IMG/VR virus record: IMGVR_UViG_2565956722_000005 | Span: 1 to 46,116 of that record | Length of the DNA: 46,116 nt | DNA from: a virus | Lineage: Duplodnaviria > Heunggongvirae > Uroviricota > Caudoviricetes | Direction: 5' to 3' (one strand) | Part shown: positions 39,616 to 39,684 of the stretch, one piece after another | How the letters are laid out: every line of letters starts with the position of its first letter | How positions within the stretch are numbered: the first letter of the stretch is position 1 | Position numbers and translations under genes: made by a program | Notes under the pieces: generated by a model | What the model was told of the DNA's origin: nothing | Database searches by the model: none | The model's input: only the letters and a program-made list of their open reading frames with translations

Positions 39616-39660
39616 AATTGACTCCTTTAGTTTGAATTGACTGTTAAGTTGATTGCTTAT

Positions 39661-39672
39661 TGTTAAAGAGCG
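39661..39672 (-). promoter_or_regulatory. boxA-like element (CGCTCTTTAACA) downstream of cro
   Basis: Minus-strand CGCTCTTTAACAAT in the 69-bp cro-ydaT gap; matches the boxA consensus; no obvious boxB hairpin follows. Confidence 0.45.
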
Positions 39673-39684
39673 TGAAATGGAAAT

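Follow-up and report, generated by a model that had tools for sequence, protein, structure and literature searches.

A lone boxA between cro and the cII-type gene ydaT of a lambda-like prophage: relation to nut sites and a candidate role in host Nus factor loading

The immunity region and the boxA of the cro-ydaT gap

The DNA analyzed here, referred to as the window (46,116 nt, the whole of the stretch taken from IMG/VR record IMGVR_UViG_2565956722_000005), is a complete lambda-like prophage. Its immunity region is 98.6% identical to Escherichia phage PhiR34_1, which is plaque-forming, and further close phages are Perceval (genus Bievrevirus), 4A7, and Lambda_4C10. The main features around the immunity region are as follows.

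40999-41027, plus strand: PL, followed by a non-coding leader of ~270 nt, of which ~190 nt are structured (41034-41225)
40020-40709, plus strand: S24-type cI gene, divergent from cro across the operators
39943-39971, minus strand: inferred PR promoter (TTGACT, 17 nt, TAATCT) within AACAACC-type operators, read from the sequence
39685-39915, minus strand: cro-like gene of the YdaS family, 76 aa, with a YdaS/Cro-type HTH (PF15943, E = 4e-17); first gene of the PR operon
39076-39615, minus strand: ydaT-like gene, 179 aa (PF06254, E = 8e-30; PHROG 163, 'CII-like transcriptional activator')

The rightward operon runs on the minus strand from cro across a 69-nt gap to ydaT, O, P, ren, emrE, ybcK, and onward to Q. 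Stops and starts overlap among its densely arranged early genes, and the cro-ydaT gap (39616-39684), which lies exactly between the stop codon TAA of the cro-like gene (39685-39687) and the ATG of the ydaT-like gene (39613-39615), is the sole long untranslated stretch. The ydaT-like gene is regarded as a functional analogue of cII (PMC9986795). On the other side of the immunity region, the PL leader is followed by kil (41305-41511), gam, bet, and exo.

With regard to this leftward side, the PL-kil leader (41034-41225, plus strand) contains three hairpins, at 41033-41082, 41105-41173, and 41194-41217, and is 95-99% conserved in both immunity types despite differing adjacent operators. It has no Rfam match and no likeness to HK022 put or Rac kilS, and may act in cis as an RNA, in the place that nutL or putL takes in other phages. 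In relatives, Kil is annotated as a protein of 136-139 aa that starts inside the leader, in a frame that is ended here by a TAG (41194-41196); the Kil family profile (PHROG) covers the C-terminal 68-77 aa alone (start at 41305 or 41221; region 41221-41511), and the longer annotations are probably over-extended. In relatives, the DNA from cI to PL forms a hotspot for cargo, with BstA-like, HipA, GevA/GevT, and transmembrane proteins; the same interval of the window (40710-40998) holds no cargo, just a terminator-like hairpin (40831-40848) after cI.

Within and around the cro-ydaT gap, the following elements were found.

39659-39672, minus strand: boxA CGCTCTTTAACAAT, on the sense strand of the PR transcript, as read from the letters
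39641-39658, minus strand: spacer AAGCAATCAACTTAACAG, homologous to the 17-19 nt spacer between boxA and hairpin in relatives
39640-39647, minus strand: deletion scar, TTAACAG (39641-39647) joined straight to TCAATTC
39635-39642 and 39616-39623, minus strand: direct repeat AGTCAATT, two copies, period 19
39600-39745, minus strand: C-rich, G-poor tract (C 0.24-0.30 and G 0.09-0.15 per 80 nt), covering the 3' end of cro and the gap

boxA is the RNA sequence bound by the host NusB-NusE (S10) heterodimer. The core of the gap element, GCTCTTTAACA (39661-39671, minus strand), is an exact match of the functional consensus GYTCTTTAANA, which rests on mutagenesis and on the boxA sequences of rrn and suhB (PMC5725501), and the critical positions G2, C5, U6, and U8 (PMC5725501, PMC3177189) are all intact in it; with the rrn-type U8, NusB-NusE binding is tighter than with the A8 of lambda (PMC3177189). 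Compared with the rrn boxA TGCTCTTTAACAA, the element is identical at 12 of 13 positions, the sole difference being the first base. It lies ~265 nt 3' of the inferred PR start and 43 nt 5' of the ydaT ATG, and the ydaT ribosome-binding site follows 32 nt downstream of it. The 12-mer GCTCTTTAACAA occurs with zero mismatches once in the whole window, and GYTCTTTAANA has two matches in 92 kb (both strands) versus 0.26 expected from shuffles, two matches being reached by 2 of 100 shuffles. The other match (GTTCTTTAACA, 28517-28527, plus strand) is antisense within the lysozyme R gene and most likely due to chance. A natural point variant (A to G) of the element reads CGCTCTTTGACAAT.

Folding of a 79-nt RNA gave -4.1 kcal/mol (z = -0.16), no better than shuffles, with no stable hairpin 3' of boxA; the boxA of the gap is accessible, without a stable competing RNA structure. 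The sequence-only reading had described a minus-strand boxA closer to the rRNA-operon consensus than the nutR boxA of lambda is, with no GC hairpin or recognisable boxB after it; the description holds, the boxA being nearly identical to that of rRNA operons and the window having no boxB hairpin. The C-rich, G-poor tract has a rut-like composition and the position of lambda tR1, and we infer that it may serve in Rho entry. By its sequence, strand, position, and conservation, the gap element is a genuine boxA, to which NusB-NusE would be expected to bind.

Relation to nut sites and descent of the module

A nut site is marked by three defining features, a boxB, a cognate N, and a nutL, and each of them was looked for. 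Comparison by tblastn of lambda N, P22 gp24, a gp24-like N (from the IMG/VR phage L036), and HK022 Nun with the window returned noise alone, and the annotations of PhiR34_1 and Perceval contain no N. RNA folding gave no boxB stem-loop 3' of boxA in the window, and no boxA with up to two mismatches lies near PL (40700-41600). A nutL twin of boxA or of the hairpin that follows boxA in relatives (see below) was likewise absent from loci L038, L013, L024, and L091 and from 24 further loci. As boxB and nutL are missing here and no N, short of a very divergent one, is detectable, the element is classed as a boxA and not as a nut site. An Rfam search at gathering and E-value thresholds, over 38900-41700 and over the whole window, produced nothing relevant. 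The window shows no similarity to HK022 putL and putR, which were taken from the HK022 record for this comparison, and holds no second copy of the PL leader; the Rac sRNA KilS, annotated upstream of kilR, has no homology to the PL leader of the window.

A candidate N encoded in the PL leader itself, where an arginine-rich stretch RLRGVRGVKRTRERRCDQLK stands in a frame that begins MNFSRLRGVRGVKRTRERRCDQLK, was rejected as a protein. In the window this frame has a TTG start, no Shine-Dalgarno sequence, and a TAG stop, and in relatives it has no start codon in type-B loci and 1-nt and 5-nt indels elsewhere.

The sequence-only reading had proposed antitermination without N, to be abandoned if homology revealed a boxB and a cognate N; neither has been detected in the window by tblastn, by folding, or in the PhiR34_1 and Perceval annotations. 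Its argument that likeness to the rRNA boxA speaks for N-independence is weak, because the N-type sites of P22, phage 21, and L036 carry the same rRNA-like boxA. Phage 21 and the E. coli rrn operons have one and the same boxA, lambda with its A8 being the weaker exception (PMC3177189). P22 nutR (CGCTCTTTACCAAT plus boxB, N-dependent) agrees with the boxA of the window at 13 of 14 positions, and CGCTCTTTAAC of P22 nutL, also N-dependent and followed by boxB, is shared with it. In L036, whose N is P22-gp24-like (MNSRQRYKAKRAAEHRER...AAGHRKSKQVTAR), nutR contains the identical 14-mer followed by a boxB-like hairpin, and the cII gene has a ribosome-binding region resembling the Shine-Dalgarno region 5' of ydaT in the window.

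The exact 14-mer CGCTCTTTAACAAT was found in more than 120 IMG/VR contigs, many of them with nut-like surroundings. Over six diverged junctions (alignment A2) the 14-nt boxA block is invariant while the flanks vary, and the distant YdaT phages L206, L207, L211, and L250, with unrelated cro 3' ends and diverged spacers, have the same 14-mer and, at the same distance from boxA, a GGCUGA-NNNN-UCAGCC hairpin (alignment A2). Two sister contigs (L024 and L091) have the same cI and cro as the window plus 12 extra bases (ACTGATTAACAG) 17 nt after boxA. With them, a GACTG-ATTAA-CAGTC hairpin (GACUG-AUUAA-CAGUC in RNA) forms at the boxB position, its 5' arm and loop coming from the extra bases. The form seen in the window is the one expected from a 12-bp deletion between the two TTAACAG repeats, by which the window has lost this arm and the loop; as a hairpin at this place is shared with distant YdaT phages, it is ancestral and the window a deletion derivative. 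The repeat AGTCAATT has exactly two copies in the whole window, both inside the gap and 19 nt apart. The first (39635-39642) takes in the residual 3' arm of the former hairpin, and the second (39616-39623) overlaps the ydaT Shine-Dalgarno sequence AAGGAG (39622-39627). The direct repeat that had been noted in place of a hairpin is thus real as two copies, but it is in part an artefact of the 12-bp deletion, the sister contigs having the hairpin.

In IMG/VR the hairpin-bearing form is represented by 5 contigs versus at least 120 for the deleted form. Of 155 IMG/VR copies without the hairpin, 153 have an intact boxA, a variation too low to reveal selection on boxA inside the lineage. Among 5426 complete E. 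coli genomes, 1507 carry the cro-plus-gap segment, which is at least 99% identical in most carriers.

A targeted scan identified about 50 distinct junctions with a module of boxA, spacer, and GGCTGA hairpin, 5' of ydaT-like or lambda-cII-like genes; the 14-nt boxA block is invariant in these as well, with diverging flanks. The module, confined to the PR side, consists of boxA, a spacer of 17-19 nt, and a stable hairpin closed by a tetraloop, and it is single-copy in every locus examined. The stem GGCUGA/UCAGCC is invariant (loci L404-L459, L206, L250, and others), and the tetraloops are hypervariable even between near-identical flanks (UUCU, UACG, UUCG, AUUA, GUAA, GUGU, GAAA, GGAA, GUUA, UUAG, and GCAA), many of them belonging to the stable GNRA or UNCG classes. 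In L211, a stem variant keeps pairing by a G.U pair. The fixed stem, the variable tetraloop, and the G.U pair together suggest a hairpin formed in RNA, the loop of which does not serve a peptide as a fixed target; the variation of the tetraloop may reflect neutral drift from one stable loop to another, or else diversifying selection.

The three loci inspected on the PL side for an N-like ORF (L038, L274, and L408) showed none. The module looks like a nut-like element living in N-less phages, with the window as a hairpin-less copy. In the comparison with the nutR regions of related phages that the sequence-only reading had called for, the 14-mer is conserved, the three loci show no N-like gene, and the identical 14-mer also stands in the nutR of the N-encoding L036. 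Mosaic joints place boxA behind no fewer than three different cro alleles. As a separate observation, YdaT phages of the Klebsiella/Enterobacter type (L206-L285) have a boxA-like site with one mismatch (GCTTTTTAACA or GCTCATTAACA) in the PL leader, ~100 nt 3' of PL (e.g., L038:5765-5800) and after a conserved GCGGCGGACAGCAAGTCGCCT; this site lies at a mosaic joint, beyond which the sequence takes at least five different forms, and is present in at least 35 of 80 loci.

The nut sites of lambda, P22, and phage 21 are similar in arrangement, with nutR at the same place, on the sense strand between cro and a cII-type gene and overlapping the tR1 region. In these phages the spacer is shorter than the 17-19 nt that follow the 14-mer in relatives of the window, and boxB is recognized in a loop-specific manner by an ARM, whereas the relatives combine a fixed stem with a hypervariable tetraloop. 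The relatives do carry a hairpin 3' of boxA; the window is without boxB, N gene, and nutL partner.

boxA-free relatives and the needs of the early operon

The distribution of boxA was examined in 80 IMG/VR loci with a YdaT 98-100% identical to that of the window. The cro-boxA junction of the window is shared by 34 of them, and the other 46 differ in their immunity region: a GCCGC-loop-GCGGC hairpin closes cro, ydaT follows after 24-30 nt, and the 4 kb to each side hold no consensus boxA. The early right operon of Perceval is similarly built (cro, ydaT, O, P, ren, emrE, ybcK ... ninE, ybcO, rusA, Q), and over the 17 kb from PL through its lysis genes there is no boxA within one mismatch. The 46 loci likewise have no boxA within one mismatch in the early region, and together with Perceval, given their similar operon, they indicate that boxA is dispensable for such phages. 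In the wider YdaT family, most cro alleles are without boxA and end in a GCCGCC-UAAnn-GGCGGC hairpin. Unrelated cro alleles (L206-L285, L127, and Perceval, L288:2990-3040) share this ending in the form GCCGCC-(UAA/UGA + 1-2 nt)-GGCGGC; the loop contains the stop codon of cro, the start of ydaT is 16-30 nt further on, and the junction hairpin replaces the boxA module.

The presence of boxA follows the length of the gap: it was found in 44 of 48 loci with a cro-ydaT gap of at least 69 nt and in 0 of 111 with a gap of at most 30 nt. This link fits a role of boxA tied to the long untranslated gap and is confounded by common descent.

With regard to termination, a simple scan of the minus strand from PR to Q revealed no strong intrinsic terminator, which makes Rho the relevant threat to the operon. 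The first strong intrinsic terminator (30877-30854) lies just past Q, the position expected for a tR'-type terminator. Further down the operon, three features bear on how its distal genes may be expressed.

33009-33026, between ybcM and ybcN: palindrome TTGATT-N6-AATCAA (TTGATTTTGGGAAATCAA), perfect match
32998-33026, minus strand: near-consensus promoter (TTGATT, 17 nt, CATAAT), overlapping the palindrome and directed toward ybcN-ninE-ybcO-rusA-Q
~32960-32992, minus strand: 5' hairpin CACCGGAG...CTCCGGTG, downstream of the nin-Q promoter

The palindrome TTGATT-N6-AATCAA is the operator recognized by CP-933P YdaT (PMC9986795), and by chance ~0.006 perfect copies would be expected per window (~92,000 positions on both strands, divided by 4^12). 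Perceval and about 20 other loci share conserved half-sites, -10 element, and hairpin, with a central spacer that varies and upstream DNA that is unrelated. The nin-Q genes probably have an internal promoter of their own, which is possibly under YdaT control. With such a promoter, processive antitermination from PR to Q may not be needed, and together with the boxA-free siblings it makes antitermination of the whole operon less necessary.

Candidate roles of the lone boxA

The account that we favor, and hold tentatively as a possible rather than a likely one, is that the boxA is a cut-down site of nut type, probably active, which loads host Nus factors independently of N and dampens Rho action at the gap equivalent to tR1, in an accessory role. 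The boxA stands at the classical nutR/tR1 place on the early PR transcript, between cro and the cII analogue. As RNA polymerase exits cro, NusB-NusE would bind the unstructured consensus boxA; NusA, NusG, and SuhB would then join, forming a host Nus complex on the elongating polymerase with no phage protein needed. Such a complex may reduce Rho-dependent termination and polarity at the untranslated C-rich gap of the coupled cro-ydaT-O-P-ren operon, the direction of the effect being the presumed one, and boxA would act as accessory tuning and not as an essential switch. The exact consensus match, the sense strand, and the unstructured RNA argue for this account, as do the C-rich, G-poor gap, the lack of a strong intrinsic terminator between PR and Q, and the association of boxA with long gaps. 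Because the 14-mer is invariant and no N-like ORF was seen in L038, L274, L408, or the window, its conservation is not explained by N. A further argument is that a lone boxA functions without N in two other settings, where it recruits the full Nus/SuhB complex: upstream of CRISPR arrays it provides anti-Rho antitermination (PMC7665894), and in the suhB leader the complex represses translation and thereby promotes Rho termination (PMC5725501; review PMC12360218). The boxA-free siblings and the lack of a PL-side boxA within two mismatches in the window count against the account, as does the identity with L036, which means that inheritance or conservation as a recombination linker could explain the boxA. 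Nus complexes at boxA can, moreover, favor and not block Rho termination (PMC5725501; PMC12360218).

Known systems resemble this proposal to different degrees. The rrn leader and spacer boxA complex (NusA/B/E/G, SuhB, and S4) is matched by the 12 of 13 identical boxA positions and by the predicted anti-Rho action free of phage proteins; the rrn boxA, however, lies in long non-coding RNA, and the rrn leader has an upstream boxB and a boxC, whereas the boxA of the window has neither and lies within a translated mRNA operon, ~265 nt from the promoter and after a translated gene. The suhB 5' UTR and the CRISPR arrays likewise have a single consensus boxA without boxB or N, at suhB also less than 50 nt from the start codon. 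These sites are chromosomal and experimentally proven, while the boxA of the window lies in a phage early operon and is known from its sequence; the suhB site leads to repression and the CRISPR site to antitermination, and dependence on Nus factors with Rho as effector is the logic that would be expected for the window as well. HK022 is likewise a lambdoid phage that expresses its early operons without N, and it has putR in the cro-cII gap; put is, however, an RNA of ~70 nt with two stems that needs no Nus factors for its direct action on RNA polymerase, whereas the gap of the window is unstructured and has no similarity to put. The element is best filed as a member of a boxA-only class, with a predicted function and descent from a nut-type module, and the literature that was searched contains no description of a boxA-only site in an N-less lambdoid phage.

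Among the alternatives, the one that survives best, though we consider it unlikely, is that the element is a vestigial nutR, an inherited or recombined remnant of an N-dependent nut site that has no present effect on transcription and is kept because the lineage is young or because the 14-mer serves as a linker for recombination between immunity and replication modules. The deleted hairpin at the boxB position and the failure to find an N gene agree with such decay, as does the sharing of the 14-mer and of a similar Shine-Dalgarno region with the N-encoding L036; the viability of boxA-free siblings and the occurrence of boxA at mosaic joints with several cro alleles (three or more) also speak for it, and the near-identity of the segment in most carriers (at least 99%) leaves little time for decay. 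Against it, the 14-mer is perfect where flanks are ~50% identical, three lineages examined have no N-like gene, and a consensus boxA in unstructured RNA would be expected to bind NusB-NusE regardless (PMC3177189, PMC5725501).

Repression of the suhB type, which appears distinctly less probable, would have the Nus complex at boxA loop the RNA to the polymerase and hinder the 30S subunit at the ydaT ribosome-binding site, so that less of the cII analogue is made; secondary Rho termination would follow inside ydaT, and the choice between lysis and lysogeny would be tied to Nus-factor levels and growth rate. The geometry matches that of suhB, with a consensus boxA less than 50 nt from the start codon, and repression at suhB persists with a spacer of up to 100 nt and needs the full Nus complex (PMC5725501). 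The survey in the same study lists an E. coli S88 prophage with a consensus boxA 3 nt upstream of an annotated cII, and its discussion recalls that lambda N-nutL also represses translation of N (PMC5725501). Rho termination in ydaT would, however, have polar effects on O and P at a cost to lytic growth, and other lambdoid phages put an antitermination site at the same place.

It is very improbable that the gap acts at the DNA level, as a PRE/YdaT operator as in CP-933P, with the two copies of AATTGACT and a plus-strand TTGATT as half-sites and boxA as incidental. The CP-933P YdaT footprint does span ~95 bp over the end of ydaS and the ydaS-ydaT gap, around TTGATT-N6-AATCAA (PMC9986795), and the gap of the window holds one exact TTGATT half-site (39649-39654, plus strand; AATCAA within the spacer AAGCAATCAACTTAACAG) and two TTGACT motifs; the perfect palindrome at 33009-33026 suggests in addition that this YdaT specificity may be used by the phage. 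The best full operator match in the gap, however, has three mismatches, which is chance level, and an operator of the CP-933P type inside the gap was rejected on this ground, there being no other candidate. The 14-mer is, moreover, common to bona fide RNA nut sites of P22-type phages, and the hypervariable tetraloops of GNRA and UNCG type and the G.U change in relatives are traits of RNA and not of an operator.

Finally, a hidden N-like antiterminator with an unconventional boxB, encoded for example on the right operon, which would make this a normal N-dependent nut site, has next to no probability and is largely refuted for the window: N proteins are small and quickly diverging, the N-like Gp17 of mEp021 is encoded downstream of nutR1 (PMC11893012), and the PL leader translates to the arginine-rich RLRGVRGVKRTRERRCDQLK, but the window has no hairpin, no locus has a nutL twin, tblastn with four queries was empty, the arginine-rich ORF is not conserved, and the tetraloops of relatives vary between near-identical flanks.

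A broader form of N-independent Nus loading, which remains rather doubtful, is that a large N-less group of lambdoid phages uses a nut-like module free of phage protein (boxA with or without the hairpin of fixed stem and variable tetraloop, single-copy, at PR) to load the host Nus/SuhB complex. The group would include the DLP12/Bievrevirus-type prophage of the window, and the hairpin-deleted form would then show that boxA alone suffices. If this were true, lambdoid phages would have a third means of early antitermination in addition to N/nut and HK022 put. Natural variants are at hand in otherwise similar phages, which have boxA with the hairpin, boxA alone, the point mutation CGCTCTTTGACAAT, or no boxA. 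Should the boxA prove inert, the locus would have the more modest value of showing clearly how a nut site decays and how boxA can form a mosaic joint. Expression of the early operons in N-less lambdoid prophages (Rac, DLP12, and Perceval types) has been poorly described, although a large fraction of E. coli genomes carries such prophages. If Nus factors are recruited by the lone boxA, boxA-only regulation as known from suhB and CRISPR arrays would extend to phage early transcription, and the lysis-lysogeny circuit, through YdaT and then O and P, would be linked to the host supply of Nus factors and to Rho activity.
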